Source: a virus
Lineage: Duplodnaviria; Heunggongvirae; Uroviricota; Caudoviricetes
Strand: one strand, 5' to 3'
Length of the DNA stretch: 64,000 bases
IMG/VR virus record: IMGVR_UViG_3300045988_003641
Coordinates: 1-64,000 of that record
Part shown: positions 676 through 59,386 of the stretch, piece by piece
Layout of the letters: every line of letters starts with the position of its first letter
How positions within the stretch are numbered: the stretch's first letter is position 1
Made by a program: the position numbers and the translations under genes
Notes under the pieces: generated by a model
The model's database searches: none
Told to the model about the DNA's origin: nothing
The model's input: only the letters and a program-made list of their open reading frames with translations

Positions 676-682
676 AAAGTAC

Positions 683-718
683 TTTACAAGGGGCTTATAG
701 TTCGATAAAGTAAGCCCC
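683..718 (+). promoter_or_regulatory. Early cassette type B: TTTACA-17-TAAAGT promoter-like element with GGGGCTTA/TAAGCCCC hairpin
   Basis: Recurring about 50-bp element; 8-bp stem; no T-tract so not a simple terminator. Confidence 0.55.
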
Positions 719-765
719 AGATAAAGAGCTTTACCAAATTAACCCTTAAACTAGGAGATTCAAAA

Positions 766-1149
766 ATGGCATATCGTGCACCTAAATTCATCAACAAAGA
801 CAACTTTCGCAACACACTGGAGAAGTCACTTGATGAAAATTTTAAAGGTAACATTATCGTTGTTCACGCATTCAATTTTAAGTATGATGTAAACGGGAAT
901 AGAATCAACCATTACACGGCAACCATGTTAGATGGTACACTTTCAAGTGAAAAAGCCGTACTAAATGCACTGGCAGGACGTGGAAAGGTATTAGTAAGAT
1001 GTGATAAGAGACGTTATCAGGGCGGTGCATATGGTTATGATGATGCTGTTTACCATCTTGAAAATATGGGCTATCAAGTAGAAAAAGCTGGAGCATCACA
1101 AATCATCGGCAGTGATGGTTATGTAACTATCTTCAAAATTAACAAATAA
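766..1149 (+). CDS. hypothetical early protein
   Basis: ORF 127 aa behind cassette leader. Confidence 0.6.
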   Translation: MAYRAPKFINKDNFRNTLEKSLDENFKGNIIVVHAFNFKYDVNGNRINHYTATMLDGTLSSEKAVLNALAGRGKVLVRCDKRRYQGGAYGYDDAVYHLENMGYQVEKAGASQIIGSDGYVTIFKINK

Positions 1150-1154
1150 AGTAC

Positions 1155-1190
1155 TTTACAAGGGGCTTATAGTTCGATAAAGTAAGCCCC
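1155..1190 (+). promoter_or_regulatory. Early cassette type B
   Basis: Near-identical copy of the 683-718 element. Confidence 0.55.
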
Positions 1191-1220
1191 AGATAAAAAG
1201 CTTTACTACTCAATCCTAAA

Positions 1221-1529
1221 TTGGAGAACTTAAAAATGGCTATTATCAAAAACGTTGTAATTACTGCAAAGACTCGTGATGACGCTCGCGTTATGGCTAA
1301 AAAGTTATGCGGTAAAGTGGTTGACAACGGAAAACAATCTGCTGTAAGGTGGGGTGTGAAGGTTGATAAACAGTTGAAGTTAAAAAATTCACCGATAAAC
1401 CTTTTTACATGTGTAAACACTATCGGGAAGACAAATGTATACACGAAAAAGGCATACATTAGACGCGTAGCATTAACATCCCCCATTCGTACAATGAGAA
1501 GTTATGCAAAGCTGAAAATTAACAAATAA
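1221..1529 (+). CDS. hypothetical early protein
   Basis: ORF 102 aa behind cassette leader. Confidence 0.6.
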   Translation: MENLKMAIIKNVVITAKTRDDARVMAKKLCGKVVDNGKQSAVRWGVKVDKQLKLKNSPINLFTCVNTIGKTNVYTKKAYIRRVALTSPIRTMRSYAKLKINK

Positions 1530-1534
1530 AGTAC

Positions 1535-1570
1535 TTTACAGGGGGCTTAAAAGCTGATACCTTAAGCCCC
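1535..1570 (+). promoter_or_regulatory. Early cassette type B (variant stem GGGGCTTAA/TTAAGCCCC)
   Basis: Covarying stem, same flanks. Confidence 0.5.
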
Positions 1571-1614
1571 AGATAAAGAGCTTTACCACTAAATCCTAAA
1601 CTGGAGATTCAAAA

Positions 1615-2127
1615 ATGAAAACTGTAGACGCTACCTTTGAAGTTGTAAAAGAAAAATTCACTATTATTTATGAAGCTGTCAATTGCTTTGAAGCAAGCCA
1701 TAATCTTGATAATTGGGAATTTACAGATGACCATCAAGGCGGTGTGACGATTAAAAATCCTAACTGTCAGCGTAATGAATTTAAATATGCAATCCCTTTA
1801 CATTACAGCCTTAAACAGCTTTCAAGTGACTATGCAAAACAAGGCCGGGCAAATCCATCAAAAGAGGCTTACATCAGCTTACAGAAAGAACTAGAAAGAG
1901 ATTTAGAGGCTTCAGAATATAACATTGCCGCGAAAGTTGTAGATGCAAATGGCAGCACTGTTTTAGAAAGTTTTTATATTGGTTACGCTTTCGATTGGTG
2001 CTACAGTGACGGCGATGATTTAGAGGATAGACTAAAAGAAGAGGTGAACAACGCAGACGCAGAATCTGAAGTATTAGAACGTTTGGAATCGTTGAAAGAC
2101 TCAGTGATGAATATCTTTAAGAACTAA
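1615..2127 (+). CDS. hypothetical early protein (acidic C-terminus)
   Basis: ORF 170 aa behind cassette leader. Confidence 0.6.
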   Translation: MKTVDATFEVVKEKFTIIYEAVNCFEASHNLDNWEFTDDHQGGVTIKNPNCQRNEFKYAIPLHYSLKQLSSDYAKQGRANPSKEAYISLQKELERDLEASEYNIAAKVVDANGSTVLESFYIGYAFDWCYSDGDDLEDRLKEEVNNADAESEVLERLESLKDSVMNIFKN

Positions 2128-2136
2128 ATAGATTCC

Positions 2137-2170
2137 TTTACACGGGGTTATCAAGCTGGTAGGATAGCCC
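2137..2170 (+). promoter_or_regulatory. Early cassette type B (variant)
   Basis: TTTACA + GGGGTTATC/GATAGCCCC hairpin + AGATAAAGAG flank. Confidence 0.45.
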
Positions 2171-2219
2171 CAGATAAAGAGATTTATCAAATAAAGCCCT
2201 TAAACTAGGAGATTCTAAA

Positions 2220-2516
2220 ATGAAATTATCAAATAAAGTCCGTGAAAATTTAAGCAAGTTACTTAATAAAATTGATTTCATTGAAACATCAAGAAATAGT
2301 CATGATGTTATGGAATGGTTACACGGAAAAATCAAAGGCCGTCGTGTAGTGATTTGCTTATGGAACAGTTGCAGGGAGTATAAAAAACCTGTATTGCAAG
2401 TCAATATTTATGATGATACTTTTAAAAGTCCTGTAAAATCTAAAAGCGATTTATTAGAATCCTATGAGATAACTGTAAATGGCAAAGTATCACGTAAAGA
2501 GGAAACACCATGTTAA
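2220..2516 (+). CDS. hypothetical early protein
   Basis: ORF 98 aa behind cassette leader. Confidence 0.6.
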   Translation: MKLSNKVRENLSKLLNKIDFIETSRNSHDVMEWLHGKIKGRRVVICLWNSCREYKKPVLQVNIYDDTFKSPVKSKSDLLESYEITVNGKVSRKEETPC

Positions 2517-2842
2517 TGACTGGTATCACTGCAATCATTGCCATTTTCGCTCTATATAAGGCATATAAAGCCTATAATCTAGCAAATAAGGCAACCACCC
2601 AGCAGGTTAGCAATAGCCTTGTAGAAAGCTTTCTAGGGCGTTTAAGTGATGAGCAAATAAAGCGGCTAGAGATGAGCTTCAGATATAAAGCGAAAACCTA
2701 TCAGATAAGTGACATCTTCAAAGATAATTTTCAGTTAGTGGATGATTATAATTCTCTGATAAATGCTTTAAATGTCAGTGACTTAAAAGACTACTACGCT
2801 GTAATTGTTCAAGAATTGAGCAAACGAAAACAAAACTGTTGA
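2510..2842 (+). CDS. hypothetical early protein, N-terminal hydrophobic segment
   Basis: ORF 110 aa, start overlaps upstream stop (ATGTTAATG); likely TM helix ITAIIAIFALY. Confidence 0.55.
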   Translation: MLMTGITAIIAIFALYKAYKAYNLANKATTQQVSNSLVESFLGRLSDEQIKRLEMSFRYKAKTYQISDIFKDNFQLVDDYNSLINALNVSDLKDYYAVIVQELSKRKQNC

Positions 2843-2898
2843 CACTGGTTTTTAGATAGATTAAATTACACATCAACGGGGAGGGAATGACCTTCCCC
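2839..2898 (+). promoter_or_regulatory. Early cassette type A (TTGACA-17-TAAATT + hairpin)
   Basis: -35 2839-2844, -10 2862-2867, hairpin 2878-2898. Confidence 0.7.
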
Positions 2899-2932
2899 AC
2901 TAAATAAAGCCCTTAAACTAGGAGATTCAAAA

Positions 2933-3091
2933 ATGTTTTGTGCAGGTGATAAAGTTGTCTGGAATGATATAGATGACGGTTTATGTACGAAAGTTGTTGT
3001 TATCTTAGAAATTGATTATATCACTGGTGTTGCAACTGTAGCAGATAATGATATAATCTTTGATGTCTTAATTAGTGAACTGTCAAAATAA
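2933..3091 (+). CDS. small hypothetical early protein (52 aa), not in supplied ORF track
   Basis: ATG directly behind cassette leader CTAGGAGATTCAAAAATG; 52 sense codons to TAA. Confidence 0.5.
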   Translation: MFCAGDKVVWNDIDDGLCTKVVVILEIDYITGVATVADNDIIFDVLISELSK

Positions 3092-3117
3092 AATCCTTAA
3101 ACTAGGAGATTCTGAAA

Positions 3118-3390
3118 ATGTATACTACTAACAACGGTCGCACTTTAAACGTAACCCTGCGTCACTATGTGAATGGTGTGATGCACTTTGATGATTTACA
3201 AGCTGAGCAACACATCTTAAATTGGCAAGTTGCAGGACTCCAAAAAACTGCTACAGGATACGGGAAAAAGATTCCAACCAGTTGGAAAGTATACTACGCA
3301 GGACGTTTACGCAGAATTTATCAAGATGTGCAAAGCAATAGCGCATCGAGTTACATTATAGTAAAAGGCAAAAAACTGCATTTAATGTAA
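3118..3390 (+). CDS. hypothetical early protein
   Basis: ORF 90 aa behind leader CTAGGAGATTCTGAAAATG. Confidence 0.6.
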   Translation: MYTTNNGRTLNVTLRHYVNGVMHFDDLQAEQHILNWQVAGLQKTATGYGKKIPTSWKVYYAGRLRRIYQDVQSNSASSYIIVKGKKLHLM

Positions 3391-3395
3391 AGTAC

Positions 3396-3430
3396 TTTAC
3401 AAGGGGCTTATAGTTCGATAAAGTAAGCCC
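3396..3430 (+). promoter_or_regulatory. Early cassette type B
   Basis: Copy of the 683-718 element. Confidence 0.55.
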
Positions 3431-3461
3431 CAGATAAAGAGCTTTACTACTCAATCCTAAA

Positions 3462-3881
3462 TTGGAGAACTTAAAAATGGCTATTAATAACCGTGAATTA
3501 TCAATTTTAAAAGCACGTTTGACCGTTAACCGGATTAATGTTATCACGTCATCAGCACCAGATGAAACACTACAAAACATTATTGGGAAGATTCAAAGTG
3601 TTATCTTAGACGTTGAAAGCGTAAAAAACTCATTGACTGACGTTGCAGCAGGTATCACGCTAGATGGTGCACAACATGAAATGGCCGACATGTTAGGCAA
3701 ATCTAAGGTAATGAATAAAGAGTTAGATTTGAAAATGTTCCGATTTGCTGTTAAAGTGTGGTTATCTGTCGAGTATGATGCTAACTTTGCAATCGCTGAC
3801 TTTTTCGCCACTTGGTTGCAGCGTAATTTGGCAAATCACGATTTCCGTAATATCTGCGATGCAATTTATGCAGAACTATAA
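3462..3881 (+). CDS. hypothetical early protein
   Basis: ORF 139 aa behind cassette leader. Confidence 0.6.
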   Translation: MENLKMAINNRELSILKARLTVNRINVITSSAPDETLQNIIGKIQSVILDVESVKNSLTDVAAGITLDGAQHEMADMLGKSKVMNKELDLKMFRFAVKVWLSVEYDANFAIADFFATWLQRNLANHDFRNICDAIYAEL

Positions 3882-3891
3882 AAAATTTTTG

Positions 3892-3951
3892 TTGACACTG
3901 GTTTTTAGATAGATTAAATTACACATCAACGGGGAGGGAATGACCTTCCCC
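3892..3951 (+). promoter_or_regulatory. Early cassette type A
   Basis: TTGACA 3892-3897, TAAATT 3915-3920, hairpin 3931-3951. Confidence 0.7.
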
Positions 3952-3984
3952 ACTAAATAAAGTCCTAAACTGGAGATTCAAAAA

Positions 3985-53895: not shown

Positions 53896-55032
53896 TTATT
53901 CGTAGTCTCGAATAACGAGACCAACAGGGAACTGTAAAGAACCCTTACGAGTCATCTTCTGGAACTGAACCGTTAAAGGTTTCCCGATAAACTCTTCAGG
54001 ATGCTCAGCAAGATACTGTTTCTTCTCGTGTGTAGTTTTCCATGAAACATCTACAAAGACGTTAGGAAGAGTCTCTACAACGAACTTACCATGACCACGC
54101 TTATCAGTCTTTACACCAGTCACTTTAAACTCTTCAGTGTGCATCTTCTTGTGCTTAATCAAGAAGTATGAACGGTGACCACACTCATAGAAAGATTCTT
54201 CAGAGATTGAACGGTACATTGCACCTTCAAACTTAGCTTCAACCCACTTATCATGAGCTTCATCAAACTCTTCCCAAGAATTTACACGGATAGTCTGTAC
54301 AGGAACAACTCTACAGGTATCCCCAAGCTCAACAATAGGTGAGTTATCAATAACTTCACGACGCTCAGGCCAAGATTTTGAATTGTCACAGATATCATAC
54401 CAGTAGAATTTAAGAAGGTGACGGTCTGGATTGTCAGCATTCTTAATCATAGATACAATATCTTCTAAGTCCCAACCATGAGCATAAATCTCTCCGTCAA
54501 AGTCTTCAACTTGCGGATGTAATTTAAGCAACAAAAGCAAATCTGGGATTAGTTCTGTTGGAACGTTGTAAACAGTATTCTCACGAGAATAAGCTGTGAA
54601 ACTGACTGAATCAGCATCTCTTGAGATTCTACAACGTACACCATCAAGTTTTGGTTGAGCATCAGCAGGGAACTTCAGATACTTTGCATGACTAACCTTT
54701 GCAGCATCATGAGCAAGCTGTACACCTACCTTCTCAGTATTCTGTGCAGACTCTTTTGTGTAAGCATAACCTTTACGGTCAACTTGCTTTTTATACTTAG
54801 CAGCAACTTCAAAGAGAGCTTGCTGTTCAGCGTTACGCTCATTCTTTTTACCGATGTTCTTAGGCTCTGCTGTATACTCTTCAAACATCATCTTGCCATT
54901 CTCTTTACCATAGGTTGTAATAACTTTGTCACCTACAGCAACACATGACCAGACGTTGAAGGAACCATCTTTATTTTGTTTGTACAGAATTGTCATTTTT
55001 AACCTCTGAGTGATACCAAGTATTGCAAGCAT
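53896..55032 (-). CDS. ATP-dependent DNA ligase
   Basis: KxDG adenylation motif PKLDGVRCRI; 378 aa. Confidence 0.8.
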   Translation of the reverse strand: MLAILGITQRLKMTILYKQNKDGSFNVWSCVAVGDKVITTYGKENGKMMFEEYTAEPKNIGKKNERNAEQQALFEVAAKYKKQVDRKGYAYTKESAQNTEKVGVQLAHDAAKVSHAKYLKFPADAQPKLDGVRCRISRDADSVSFTAYSRENTVYNVPTELIPDLLLLLKLHPQVEDFDGEIYAHGWDLEDIVSMIKNADNPDRHLLKFYWYDICDNSKSWPERREVIDNSPIVELGDTCRVVPVQTIRVNSWEEFDEAHDKWVEAKFEGAMYRSISEESFYECGHRSYFLIKHKKMHTEEFKVTGVKTDKRGHGKFVVETLPNVFVDVSWKTTHEKKQYLAEHPEEFIGKPLTVQFQKMTRKGSLQFPVGLVIRDYE

Positions 55033-55189
55033 TACATGCGTAAAGCTCTAAGTCATTTTTATCTGGTTTGTGGAAACAGTTTGACCCACAACGACACCGG
55101 AATAGCTTACCATCAACACGAAGAATGAATGTTTCAAGCTCACCATCTTCTGTAAGAACTGCGTTCTTAAATTTATCTTCTACAGTCAT
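54971..55189 (-). CDS. small Cys-rich protein
   Basis: CRCGSNC...CNACN. Confidence 0.45.
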   Translation of the reverse strand: MTVEDKFKNAVLTEDGELETFILRVDGKLFRCRCGSNCFHKPDKNDLELYACNACNTWYHSEVKNDNSVQTK

Positions 55190-55392
55190 TTTCTCTTACC
55201 ACCAATCTCTACGTCGATAACTTGAACATCGCCAGCAACATCAAACTTATGAATGATGCTTTCCACAGTGTAAGTCCAACCCTCAATGCGAACCAACTCA
55301 CCTTCTCGTGGGACGATTGGATTACGTTGAGCTACGGTTGTAGTGGAGTGAACAACATCATAACAATAGATGTAGTTTACTAAGACTTCCAT
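55186..55392 (-). CDS. hypothetical protein
   Basis: Track ORF extends to 55491 and overlaps upstream gene by 89 nt; internal ATG with GAGGT RBS chosen. Confidence 0.4.
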   Translation of the reverse strand: MEVLVNYIYCYDVVHSTTTVAQRNPIVPREGELVRIEGWTYTVESIIHKFDVAGDVQVIDVEIGGKRK

Positions 55393-55402
55393 CGTGAAAA
55401 CC

Positions 55403-55672
55403 TCACTCAATAACCGTAGTGTGTGATTGACCATTTTTGCCATAGCTATAAGATGTTGTTGTTTGGGAGTTTGGACATCTGACAACAACAATATCTCTGC
55501 TTATAGCATCACCATGTAACTTGTATACTCTGCAATCTTGCATCTCTGGTGGGAGACTGTAAGAAGCATTTTTATCTTCATAAGAAGGGTTGCAGCCAGA
55601 TAGAAAAACAACACCAAGCGCAATTACTGCTTTCCACATAATACTTCCCCAGAGACTGTACATTTTCTTCAT
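55403..55672 (-). CDS. small lipoprotein (lipobox LSGC)
   Basis: N-terminal signal peptide ending VVFLSGC. Confidence 0.55.
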   Translation of the reverse strand: MKKMYSLWGSIMWKAVIALGVVFLSGCNPSYEDKNASYSLPPEMQDCRVYKLHGDAISRDIVVVRCPNSQTTTSYSYGKNGQSHTTVIE

Positions 55673-55902
55673 AGCAACTCCAGAATATCAATACGTTCAC
55701 CTTTGAGTACTCCAGTACGGTCTTTTGCAATCTTACCGTCAACAATAAGAATGTGTGCAGACCTTAAAGTGTCGCTGTTAAAGGCTTTTACGAACTTGCT
55801 AGGCATCACTACAATACACATCTCCTGAATCAACTCTGGAGTATAGCAATTGTCGTGAAGTTGCTGAATAACGTCTGCAAGTGTCATTTTTGATGTCTCC
55901 AA
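55669..55902 (-). CDS. hypothetical protein
   Basis: ORF 77 aa. Confidence 0.45.
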   Translation of the reverse strand: METSKMTLADVIQQLHDNCYTPELIQEMCIVVMPSKFVKAFNSDTLRSAHILIVDGKIAKDRTGVLKGERIDILELL

Positions 55903-56093
55903 TATTCAATATCTACAAGTTCTTGTGCAATGCTTTTAAGGTTACTTTTGAGGAAAACTTTCTCACCACCAGACAGGGAAGTGTTATCAATGAGTCTATT
56001 CATTCTCTCAAACAACTTCTGCTTACGGTTCTTGATAGTTTCCTTTGAAGCACCTTTCATCATCGCTGCATGGGTTCTTCCACGGTGACTCAT
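55884..56093 (-). CDS. hypothetical protein
   Basis: ORF 69 aa. Confidence 0.4.
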   Translation of the reverse strand: MSHRGRTHAAMMKGASKETIKNRKQKLFERMNRLIDNTSLSGGEKVFLKSNLKSIAQELVDIEYWRHQK

Positions 56094-56144
56094 AAGCCCT
56101 CCTATATAAGATATAGTATAAGGTACTCTTCCATGAGCACCTTG

Positions 56145-56660
56145 TCAACTTAGTTTTGCAAACTCTCCGTGGAGTTTTACAGCAGCTTCACAGTAAGCTT
56201 TATGGGCTTCTTCTTCCGTTGTGTATGTTCCTATATGTATAGTCTTACCATTATGGTTAATCTGGGCTACCCACTTACCAGACTTGCTTCTACTTGTGCC
56301 TTTTAAGTTTTTTGATGTTCTAGGTTGTCTCCTATTAGACATGTTCTGTTCTTTTGTGGCCTCTCTTAAATTGTTCCAAGCGTTATTCAAGCCATCTCCA
56401 TCTTTGTGGTCAATGTGTTTATCAGGCCACTTGCCTGTCATCCAGAACCAAGCAATTCGGTGATTACCTGTCCTGTATCCTAAAATCTGTGTGTGCATAT
56501 ACACACCAGACCTTGTGCGCTTAATTGCTCCGGCTTGGCTTCCAATAACCACCCTACTACTATGTGGAGGTCTACCAATCCATGTTAAGACCCCTGTTTC
56601 GGGGTCATAATCTAACCAAGACTTTAACTGTTCATGTGTGAATCCACAATCTCTCATCAA
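56145..56660 (-). CDS. HNH homing endonuclease with AP2-like DNA-binding domain
   Basis: HIDHKDGDGLNNAWNNL HNH core; C-terminal GKWVAQINHNGKTIHIGTYTTEEEAHKAY. Confidence 0.75.
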   Translation of the reverse strand: MMRDCGFTHEQLKSWLDYDPETGVLTWIGRPPHSSRVVIGSQAGAIKRTRSGVYMHTQILGYRTGNHRIAWFWMTGKWPDKHIDHKDGDGLNNAWNNLREATKEQNMSNRRQPRTSKNLKGTSRSKSGKWVAQINHNGKTIHIGTYTTEEEAHKAYCEAAVKLHGEFAKLS

Positions 56661-59386
56661 TGTACCTCATACCAGCTCTTACCAACCTTACCTGTGCCAG
56701 TTACAAGCGTCTCACTCTTCAAACCTAAATTCTTAGATGCCTGACCATACATCCAGTCAGTTATGGCTTTAACTTCTTGAGTCATACTTTCTGGGCATTC
56801 CCAACTGTTTTCATCGTGGTATGCCAGCAAAAGCCTAGCACCGATTGCTGGTTTTCGTCCATTTAATTTTGTCAATCCTTCTTCACATGCTCTTCTACAA
56901 GCAAGATTAATTGCCTCATTTTGAATCTGAGCCTCTGAACCCATGAGCAAATAATTCAATAACTTATGTGGAGATTTACACCACAACCAAGCTCCAGCAA
57001 CCTTTACAAAACCACCTTTAGAGATTGCAGCAGTCTTACCAAATACCTCTTCAAGTGCCTTTTTAGTTGCTTTGTAGTCAGCTTCCAAGTCATCTAGCAG
57101 CTTTTTAATTTTAGGCAAACGAATAAAGTAAGTCTGTTTAGTCAGCGCACCTTCCTGAGTAGTTGCAGCTTTAATCGTCTTAGCAAACTTCTCATCACCT
57201 GCACCGAACAGCAGTGCATAGATACCATTCTTAGCTTTCTTACGACCCTTGCTAATCTCATGAAGAAGATTCTCATCCTGAGTAGCTCGACAAGTCAAGA
57301 TGTCCTGCTCATCGTTCAAGTTAAAGTAAATACTGTTCAGTGTATGTGCATCAGTCCCTGAATAGACAACGTACAGGTCATTCTCAGAGTCATAGCGAAG
57401 GTACTTATCAATCTCTGGGTTGAGGTACTCATCAAAGTGTTTACAGTAATAGCGTCCATCTTCTTGACGAATGAACTCAATTTCTTCTTTACCTTGCGTT
57501 ACCGCTTTGGTGAAGTCTTTATCACCCATAAAGTTACAAAGAAGAACTAGCTGGGCTGAGTTCATGTCTACAGAGACAACGTTAGTACCTTCCTCACAAA
57601 TCCACACTGCCCTCATTGGTTCCCCATAGACAGCAGCACCAGACGGTACGTTTACAATACCATACTGTGTCATACGTCCAGTTGAAGTACCAAACACCAT
57701 TGCACCAGCACTAAGGCGACCATCAGGACGAATCTGGTTCAACCAACCTTTTTCATCATCCTTTGAGTTCTCAATAGTTCTGCGTCGGTGCATCAAAGTG
57801 TAGTATTTAGCAATCTTCTGTCCAAGCTCACCTTCAATCGTATCGTAAGATGATTCAGTAAGTTTTGGTGAAGTACGGATTAAGCAAGGCTCAAGCAAAT
57901 CTGTGTACTTCTTCACAGACCAGTTATGCTCAATGTACTGGACGCCTTCGTGTTCAACATAACTCAAACCACACCGCTCAACCATTTCCTGCCACTTAGG
58001 ATGCTTTGTAATCATCTTTTTATTGTCTTTGAAACGACAAACTTTGACAGGGCGACCATCAGAGTCTTTCTTGTAGTTCCAGTCATCTGGAATCCAACCA
58101 ACTGATTTCAAGTAGTCTTTAACAACTGCTACCTGAGTCATACGAGAAACTTCAAACTCAATTGGTGTATATGGTGCATCAATCAAACCTGTGTAGCGAC
58201 TTGACTCAAGTTCAAAGTGGTTAACAACGTGGCTGTTATAGTACTTCACAGTTTTGACTGTTTTTACTGGCTTCCAGTCTTTGCATTTCTTACCAATCTT
58301 TGCGTTCAACTCATTGCAAATTGCACGAGCATCCTTCATTGCTACAAAGCCTTCCTTGTACTCTTCACCAGTTACAGAGTTGGTTGGTGTATAGCAATTC
58401 CTTTTTTCAATGTTAAAAATCTTTGTAGTTGGCTTACCAAATGGTTTGATTTCGTATGTCTGCATCTCGCCATTACGTACCTGCTGACGATACTTTGTCT
58501 TAGGGTACTTGGTAATTCTTTTCAGTCCATCTGCATGACCAAATGTTTCAACATACTCATTCCAAGCTTTTGCAAACTCTTCTCCAGTGACTTTACCTTT
58601 GGTCTTAATAGTTGGAGGTAGATGTGGTTCAACCTCTGAAGCAAGCTCATTAGTCAACTTGTCAAGTTCCTTTACATGGAACTCCATAAGCTCTTTATCA
58701 GCTTTCCAACCATTGATAGCTTGTTGACTCATCCAGAAAGATGTTTCTTTAGCTCGCATGTAGGTTTCATAAGTGTCTATGCCACACTTCTTAAGCTTGA
58801 GATACTCATTATCAAGTGCCCGTTTAGTTTTGGCGTTAATACGGATATCTTCTACAACACGAGTGAAGATTTCTGCATTCCACACACCCCAATGTTCAAT
58901 CTCTGGTTTACGAACACCAACACGAGCACCCCATGCAGCCAAGCCATGAGCACCTTTATAACCCTTTGGAGTTGGTCTATCCATCCACTGAACACGAGAC
59001 TGGATAAGAGAATCCTGAAAGAAATTACTCCACGGCTTACACTTTGGATTATCAAAGTTCCATAAATCCGGTGCAATGTGATTGAAAACCCACCAGTCAT
59101 AACCTAGACCATTATGAATGCAAAGACGTTTTGCCTTTAACGCAAACTCAATACCTTCACGTAAGCCACCCTTAATGTACTTGGTATACTTGTGACCGAG
59201 GATAGGCTCATCTGTAAAGACCCATACAGGTGGCTCTTCATCGTCAGATTTATAGTCTGCGAAAGCCATTACGTGCACTTTAGTGAACTCAAGGAGTAAA
59301 CCATCAGTTTCTGTATCACCAACTAAATGTAAGTTTTTAAAATCTACGTTTTCCATTTTTACTCCCTCTAAAATCATTAACCTCAT
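56657..59386 (-). CDS. DNA polymerase, family A, with 3'-5' exonuclease domain
   Basis: Exo I VGDTETDGL; motif A VVSVDMNSAQLV; motif B KNGIYALLFGAG; motif C YHDE; 909 aa. Confidence 0.85.
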   Translation of the reverse strand: MRLMILEGVKMENVDFKNLHLVGDTETDGLLLEFTKVHVMAFADYKSDDEEPPVWVFTDEPILGHKYTKYIKGGLREGIEFALKAKRLCIHNGLGYDWWVFNHIAPDLWNFDNPKCKPWSNFFQDSLIQSRVQWMDRPTPKGYKGAHGLAAWGARVGVRKPEIEHWGVWNAEIFTRVVEDIRINAKTKRALDNEYLKLKKCGIDTYETYMRAKETSFWMSQQAINGWKADKELMEFHVKELDKLTNELASEVEPHLPPTIKTKGKVTGEEFAKAWNEYVETFGHADGLKRITKYPKTKYRQQVRNGEMQTYEIKPFGKPTTKIFNIEKRNCYTPTNSVTGEEYKEGFVAMKDARAICNELNAKIGKKCKDWKPVKTVKTVKYYNSHVVNHFELESSRYTGLIDAPYTPIEFEVSRMTQVAVVKDYLKSVGWIPDDWNYKKDSDGRPVKVCRFKDNKKMITKHPKWQEMVERCGLSYVEHEGVQYIEHNWSVKKYTDLLEPCLIRTSPKLTESSYDTIEGELGQKIAKYYTLMHRRRTIENSKDDEKGWLNQIRPDGRLSAGAMVFGTSTGRMTQYGIVNVPSGAAVYGEPMRAVWICEEGTNVVSVDMNSAQLVLLCNFMGDKDFTKAVTQGKEEIEFIRQEDGRYYCKHFDEYLNPEIDKYLRYDSENDLYVVYSGTDAHTLNSIYFNLNDEQDILTCRATQDENLLHEISKGRKKAKNGIYALLFGAGDEKFAKTIKAATTQEGALTKQTYFIRLPKIKKLLDDLEADYKATKKALEEVFGKTAAISKGGFVKVAGAWLWCKSPHKLLNYLLMGSEAQIQNEAINLACRRACEEGLTKLNGRKPAIGARLLLAYHDENSWECPESMTQEVKAITDWMYGQASKNLGLKSETLVTGTGKVGKSWYEVH

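Follow-up and report, generated by a model that had tools for sequence, protein, structure and literature searches.

Directly behind the DNA polymerase gene (pol) of a phage lies an open reading frame with a nuclease signature, and the question is whether this is a mobile homing endonuclease gene and, if so, which sequence it would recognize. The locus is 56145..56660 of the window (the whole 64,000-nt stretch analysed here), where the original prediction had placed an HNH-AP2 homing endonuclease gene. The window comes from a Felix O1-like myovirus of the genus Felixounavirus: the 5-kb region around the gene matches 265 phage records, with Felixounavirus LF110P4 and Escherichia phage Andreotti as best matches at 97% identity, and one IMG/VR contig (L009) is identical from pol through the HNH gene to the gene that follows it. 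The HNH gene is already known: dozens of felixounavirus records in GenBank give it as a homing endonuclease. We put the probability that it is a free-standing HNH-AP2 homing endonuclease gene, lodged between the pol stop codon and a control region led by TTGACA, at about 80%.

Both the HNH-AP2 ORF and its position abutting the 3' end of pol were borne out. The polymerase is of family A, and all genes around the ORF, namely pol, the HNH ORF, a run of small genes and an ATP-dependent DNA ligase gene (Pfam), lie on the minus strand (Table 1), a point that the original prediction did not include. The small genes between the HNH gene and the ligase gene are conserved and have no assigned function (phrog_5180, phrog_4230, phrog_902, phrog_4427 and phrog_5768). 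The announced overlap with the pol stop exists, and its length of 4 nt holds only for a TTG start at 56660, which gives 171 aa in the program's ORF list. This TTG is a less likely start than the next codon, ATG at 56657-56655. Phage Andreotti has the ATG form, a 513-nt CDS with 1 nt in common with pol, and as this is the start given in the annotations of close relatives, the likeliest overlap is 1 nt (TGATG), A56657 being shared by the pol stop (TGA, 56659-56657) and the HNH start. The coding strand reads …TGG TAT GAG GTA CAT TGA TGA GAG… across this junction, and its GAGG Shine-Dalgarno sequence is kept in all carriers of the window's allele (allele A). A sigma-70 and terminator scan of 55800-57000 gave nothing convincing as a promoter of the HNH gene itself; the gene is probably read from the pol transcript by translational coupling, through TGATG and the GAGG 7 nt upstream. 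The TTGACA…TATACT pair that follows the HNH gene has a 22-nt spacer, so that the scan did not score it, and it is unique in the window; for these two reasons we call it a conserved control region and not a proven promoter.

Table 1. Features at and around the 3' end of pol, in window coordinates.
Feature	Position	Strand	Basis
Family A DNA polymerase gene (pol), 909 aa	56657..59386	-	Pfam DNA_pol_A
Hyperdivergent 3' tract of pol	56660..57000	-	79-82% identity to HNH-less relatives
Last 27 nt of pol, travelling with HNH allele A	56660..56686	-	Mismatch map, window against L024
GAGG Shine-Dalgarno sequence of the HNH ATG	56665..56668	-	7 nt upstream of the ATG; inside the last pol codons (E-V)
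HNH-AP2 endonuclease gene, 170 aa plus TGA stop	56145..56657	-	ORF list, Pfam, phrog_99, Andreotti homologue, dN/dS
N-terminal region, residues 1-65, motif YDPETGV(L/F)TW	56463..56657	-	Alignment of alleles A-D
HNH_3 (His-Me finger) nuclease domain, residues 66-106	56340..56462	-	Pfam; phmmer against PDB 1U3E
AP2 DNA-binding domain, residues 122-164	56166..56294	-	Pfam AP2; PDB sequence matches
Conserved intergenic segment: TTGACA (56148-56143) first, then TATACT and the next gene's RBS	56094..56148	-	Junction alignments
Downstream gene, Felix O1 gp93-like, phrog_5180, function unassigned	55884..56093	-	Directly after pol in some HNH-less relatives

Farther downstream, gene content of the small-ORF cluster at 55190-55900 varies among close relatives (counterparts in L001-L007): gp90/gp91-like ORFs are present or absent, with an indel of ~124 nt relative to the best matches, and in EcF-vB and L028 pol is immediately followed by an additional ORF of 72 aa. 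In the ligase region (53896-55189, minus strand), the 5' end of the 378-aa ligase ORF is overlapped by a 72-aa ORF (54971-55189), which some GenBank records also label 'DNA ligase'.

The predicted protein combines two Pfam domains that both score above the curated cut-offs: HNH_3 (PF13392; E 6.8e-14, 51.7 bits against a cut-off of 24.8) and AP2 (PF00847; E 1.6e-9, 38.4 bits against 33.3). It also matches phrog_99, 'HNH endonuclease', at E 3.7e-63. Residues D83-H84, N96 and N105 line up with D74-H75, N87 and N96 of I-HmuI (phmmer, PDB 1U3E) and supply the Asp followed by the general-base His, the structural Asn and the metal-binding Asn of the HNH family; in the alignment, D-H and the Asn of NLR are invariant across all five alleles found at this site. 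The AP2 part matches plant AP2/ERF structures in the PDB by sequence (WRI1, E 1.2e-7), and it is the sole confident part of a single-sequence AlphaFold2 model whose mean pLDDT is 51: strands 121-123, 129-135 and 138-145 and helix 148-164 (pLDDT 77-90) form the three-stranded sheet packed on a helix that, with the profile score, characterizes the AP2 family. With this single-sequence input, residues 32-118, a span that takes in the HNH domain and its expected beta-beta-alpha-metal fold, have pLDDT below 50, and the N-terminal region is of low confidence. The latter has no Pfam match and carries a motif common to all alleles at the pol-3' site (Table 1); it is presumed to be an extra DNA-contact region. 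Homologues of the protein occur in more than 1,800 phage records at E <1e-10, including T5-like, T4-like, T7-like and Ralstonia phages, and are mostly annotated as HNH or homing endonucleases.

None of the six allele-A loci has a broken reading frame, and dN/dS is 0.07-0.10 against allele-A copies diverged by up to 16% in nucleotides (in the control comparisons, the ungapped L006, L003 and L016 were left out as out of frame); the ORF is therefore a real gene. A chance reading frame, or a pseudogene in decay, has next to no probability. The ORF list was purely mechanical, which is all that could be said for that idea, and it is refuted by two independent Pfam domains above their gathering cut-offs, by the number of homologues and by intactness in the six loci at a dN/dS below 0.1.

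The gene is patchy among felixounaviruses. Some part of it is matched in 156 of the 265 related records and at least 80% of it, that is, the window's own allele, in 50, and the site is empty in about 40% of them. An evenly spaced sample of 51 felixounaviruses, drawn from matches to pol-3'/HNH/downstream, showed the window's allele in ~10, a different HNH gene in its place in ~19 and pol followed directly by the downstream region in ~22, the empty-site records spanning ~570-990 nt compared with 1277. The loci collected (36 from Felixounavirus and 2 from Erwinia phages, classed by the first ORF after pol) divide within Felixounavirus into 6 with allele A, 15 with other HNH-AP2 lineages and 15 with no HNH gene. 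Four other lineages thus occupy the site (B, C, C2 and D, the last being Felix O1 gp94); the five are 38-56% identical in amino acids, and their last ~23 codons (~70 nt) are almost identical. The original prediction had named the same gene in all relatives as a finding that would speak against it, and the survey fails to refute it: the gene is missing from the empty-site felixounaviruses and from Erwinia-phage outgroups, other relatives have one of the four lineages in its stead, and a single allele stands beside unrelated pol 3' haplotypes. That Felixounavirus genomes differ at their HNH regions has been described (PMC9951933), and six HNH homing endonuclease homologues have been reported for Felix O1 itself (PMC3185647). 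Within the 64-kb window, which covers part of a genome of roughly 86 kb, a tblastn search with the protein and a five-allele HMM run against 359 six-frame ORFs found no paralogue besides the gene itself. An apparent ectopic copy in L038 (Shigella phage vB_SflM_004, MK295205.1) was set aside as most likely an assembly artefact and not biology; it consists of 11 collinear HNH-gene fragments of 17-124 nt, mostly 90-100% identical, spread over 3.3 kb (682-3969) and interleaved with the thymidylate synthase and holin region.

Empty and occupied sites can be compared to the nucleotide. Every HNH-less Felixounavirus reads …GTWCAC TAA TTAGTR TTGACAAGGTGCTC… at the site, and the Erwinia-phage outgroups L031 and L035, also empty here, read …GTTCAC TAA CRG TTGACA…. 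As it is uniform in the HNH-less felixounaviruses and shared in kind by these outgroups, the empty state is most simply taken as ancestral. The occupied site reads …GTACAT TGA TG…[HNH]…AAACTAAGT TGA CAAGGTGCTC…, so that ~510 nt stand in place of a spacer of 5-6 nt, and both neighbouring genes are intact; pol is complete at occupied and empty sites alike. The HNH gene is free-standing: it has an ORF of its own, bounded by the pol stop on one side and the control region on the other, outside any intron or intein. At the right edge of the insertion, the HNH stop codon falls inside the TTGACA that opens the control region, a segment unchanged at empty sites. The last ~70 nt of the gene (56145-56214) are 93-100% identical in records with other alleles, including B and D, in which the remainder of the gene has only ~50% nucleotide identity to that of the window. 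This stretch has probably served as a right-hand homology arm for allele replacement, and it may be constrained as well through the abutting control region. In L031 and L035 (phiEa21-4/phiEa104 type), an HNH-AP2 homologue of 34-36% identity lies at 1971-2432 on the same strand and ends 69 nt before the polymerase start, so that HNH-AP2 genes flank pol on different sides in different genera.

The polymerase gene next to the site has an unusual pattern of divergence. The HNH-less phages NBEco005, EcF-vB and ECML-1 are 94-100% identical to the window in pol, fall to the values given in Table 1 over its last ~340 nt and are back at 99% immediately downstream of the HNH site. Compared with the HNH-less haplotype h1, dS of the window is 1.0-1.5 in this 3' tract versus 0.14-0.21 in a control segment of pol. 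Across 34 loci, the mean pairwise difference along pol is mostly 5-10%, rises to 14-19% at 57660-56960 and reaches 21-27% in the last 300 nt. One multiple alignment grouped the last 340 nt of 36 loci into 11 haplotypes, 61-93% identical to one another. Against this background, the window and Salmonella phage Si3 (L024) are 97.5% identical in allele A compared with 81% in the adjacent 340 nt of pol (dS 1.7). The block of high identity (97-100%) runs from 56686, 27 nt inside pol, to 56009, ~650 nt downstream, and its left edge is sharp, identity upstream dropping to 75-80%. Allele A stands beside four pol haplotypes (h2, h3, h5 and h7), of which h5 and h7 occur also without any HNH gene, and differences between HNH-bearing and HNH-less siblings of h5 and h7 are clustered in the last 19 nt of pol. 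Taken together, the identity block, the haplotypes, the h5 and h7 siblings and the diversity gradient show that the HNH gene and a few dozen flanking bases have been exchanged between otherwise divergent backgrounds. Break-induced gene conversion would be expected to leave such a pattern of lateral movement with co-conversion of the flanks.

A second mobile element probably adds to the raised diversity at 56960-57660. Some relatives have a group I intron in pol at 57213/57214 (minus strand; codons KKAKNGIYAL|LFGAGDEKF), where the pol of the window has none, and diversity at 57000-57660 may owe more to this intron site than to the HNH gene. In REP8 (L006, 3903-4186) and L036 (4611-4894), the insertion is an ORF-less one of 268 nt (Rfam Intron_gpI, 284 nt, 62 bits); Si3, L023 and L025-L027 have a version of 801-805 nt with a 160-aa ORF similar to endonuclease VII. 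The Felix O1 genome paper reports no introns (PMC3185647).

In principle, ordinary homologous recombination among mosaic phages might also produce this patchiness, with no homing driven by an endonuclease. One explanation of this kind takes patchiness as a by-product of mosaic recombination and the protein as an inactive relic, or as an AP2-type regulator of the adjacent promoter and not a nuclease. A regulatory link is conceivable, given that the HNH stop codon falls within the TTGACA that leads the downstream control region and that AP2 is a transcription-factor domain in plants (the PDB matches), and a 'regulatory role' has been loosely claimed, without data, for Felixounavirus HNH genes (PMC9951933). 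We nevertheless hold this explanation to be very improbable: the catalytic D-H and Asn are conserved in all five lineages and purifying selection acts across the whole protein, the control region is identical at empty sites and hence independent of the HNH-AP2 protein, and the peak of diversity falls exactly at the site, which points to break-induced exchange.

If the gene is a homing endonuclease gene, its target can be narrowed. The original prediction had looked to conserved polymerase sequence; the comparative data favour the junction over a conserved motif inside the gene. Because allele A tolerates four upstream haplotypes, and two of the four recur in genomes with an empty site, we infer that the target comprises the spacer and the last ~27 nt of pol and does not lie deeper in pol. 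On the same grounds we did not adopt, as our main reading, a target inside the divergent 340-nt tract: h2, h3, h5 and h7 all occur with allele A, and the HNH-less siblings of two of these differ from their HNH-bearing counterparts by a cluster of changes in the last 19 nt. The comparison of genomes supports the free-standing homing endonuclease gene of the original prediction; cleavage of polymerase sequence, enzymatic activity, nick or double-strand cut and target position we infer from the sequences. We know of no defined target for the HNH-AP2 enzymes of this phage group, nor of biochemical cleavage by any Felixounavirus HNH protein.

The mechanism that we propose would begin with a mixed infection in which a relative brings an empty site (…GTWCAC TAA TTAGTR TTGACA…). 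The AP2 domain and the N-terminal region would bind the empty junction of pol stop, spacer and TTGACA, and the His-Me finger (D83/H84/N96/N105) would make a nick or cut close by. In the recombinational repair that follows, the HNH-bearing genome would serve as template, and the gene and a short flanking stretch would be copied into the recipient. The carrier genome would be spared, because the insertion interrupts the site and alters the final pol codons (CAC TAA to CAT TGA, CTT to TAT).

Purifying selection of this strength, held over a dS of ~1, goes beyond what a simple 'homing cycle' leads one to expect of a gene that is purely selfish, and could mean that the protein also benefits the phage. 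A descendant of a homing endonuclease might accordingly be kept mainly for that benefit, for example by cutting or nicking the pol region of co-infecting felixounaviruses, in interference competition or marker exclusion rather than self-spread. The dN/dS of 0.07-0.10 would fit such a role, as would the tight coupling of translation to an essential gene and the presence of five lineages together at one site, which competition might give; an intron-encoded endonuclease has been reported to give a phage a competitive advantage (PMC11620839). Even so, we regard retention mainly for phage benefit as unlikely: some 40% of the relatives do well with no gene at the site, and the same cutting would also drive homing, which makes phage benefit more an addition to the homing endonuclease reading than an alternative to it.

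A more speculative extension of that reading, which we offer tentatively and think less likely than not, is that the pol-3' site is a multi-allelic battleground in which the five HNH-AP2 lineages compete, each potentially cutting the pol 3' or junction haplotypes that accompany its rivals or the empty site. If so, rounds of cutting and repair would account for the dS of at least 1 and the 11 or more haplotypes in the last ~340 nt of pol, an essential gene otherwise 94-100% conserved, and the locus would be a natural system in which to measure how far homing endonucleases drive the local sequence evolution of such a gene and set where its recombination boundaries fall. Apart from this, the HNH gene flags the 3' end of pol as a recombination hot spot, which calls for caution when pol serves as a phylogenetic marker for Ounavirinae. 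Empty, occupied and allele-swapped sites occur as a natural series, with which the specificity of an HNH-AP2 enzyme could readily be mapped by experiment. The mild interest of the locus is evolutionary only: five HNH-AP2 lineages, perhaps in competition, occupy a single site, and it coincides with a place where the divergence of an essential gene peaks locally.

Among known systems, the mobE gene (HNH type) and the seg genes of T4 offer the classical parallel. They are free-standing and intergenic, stand beside essential genes of nucleotide metabolism or replication, are patchy among relatives and have flanking DNA that is co-converted (PMC2790892). They differ from the window gene in their DNA-binding modules, show no detectable sequence kinship with it beyond the HNH motif, and have had cleavage and homing proven by experiment. 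I-HmuI, from an intron in the SPO1 DNA polymerase gene, resembles the window protein in its HNH_3-type His-Me finger, the order D-H…N…N and the association with a phage DNA polymerase; the sequence match itself is weak (E 0.05) and covers only ~40 residues. I-HmuI is an intron-encoded nicking enzyme, and its C-terminal domain is a helix-turn-helix, not AP2.

Closer in architecture are the 'IPA-HNH' homing endonuclease genes of ICP1 and other phages, which like the window gene join an N-terminal HNH to a C-terminal AP2 domain, are free-standing and often stand by DNA polymerase genes. The ICP1 IPA-HNH domains are too divergent for Pfam HNH_3, whereas the window protein matches that profile directly. 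HNH-AP2 homing endonucleases are a family described by Magnani et al. (2004), as cited in PMC10448857; the genes of one HNH-AP2 group are reported there as enriched beside DNA polymerase genes, which about 29% of them adjoin, and at boundaries of genetic exchange. The nearest counterparts are other felixounaviruses. The gp94 type of Felix O1 (FO1a, AEO97512.1) and the XTG1, REP8 and phiSUSP1 types have the same site and the same HNH-AP2 architecture, at 38-56% amino acid identity, and their last ~70 nt and right junction are nearly identical to those of the window. They differ in how they begin, gp94 overlapping pol by 19 nt and the other alleles starting 6-13 nt after its stop, and gp94-type and other alleles are linked to pol 3' haplotypes other than that of the window. 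Andreotti andreotti_47 (QHR70864.1, annotated 'homing endonuclease') and the HNH gene of Salmonella phage Si3, both annotated by similarity and not from experiments, are 97-99% identical to the window gene and share its position, its strand and its 1-nt overlap with the pol stop, with no difference of substance.
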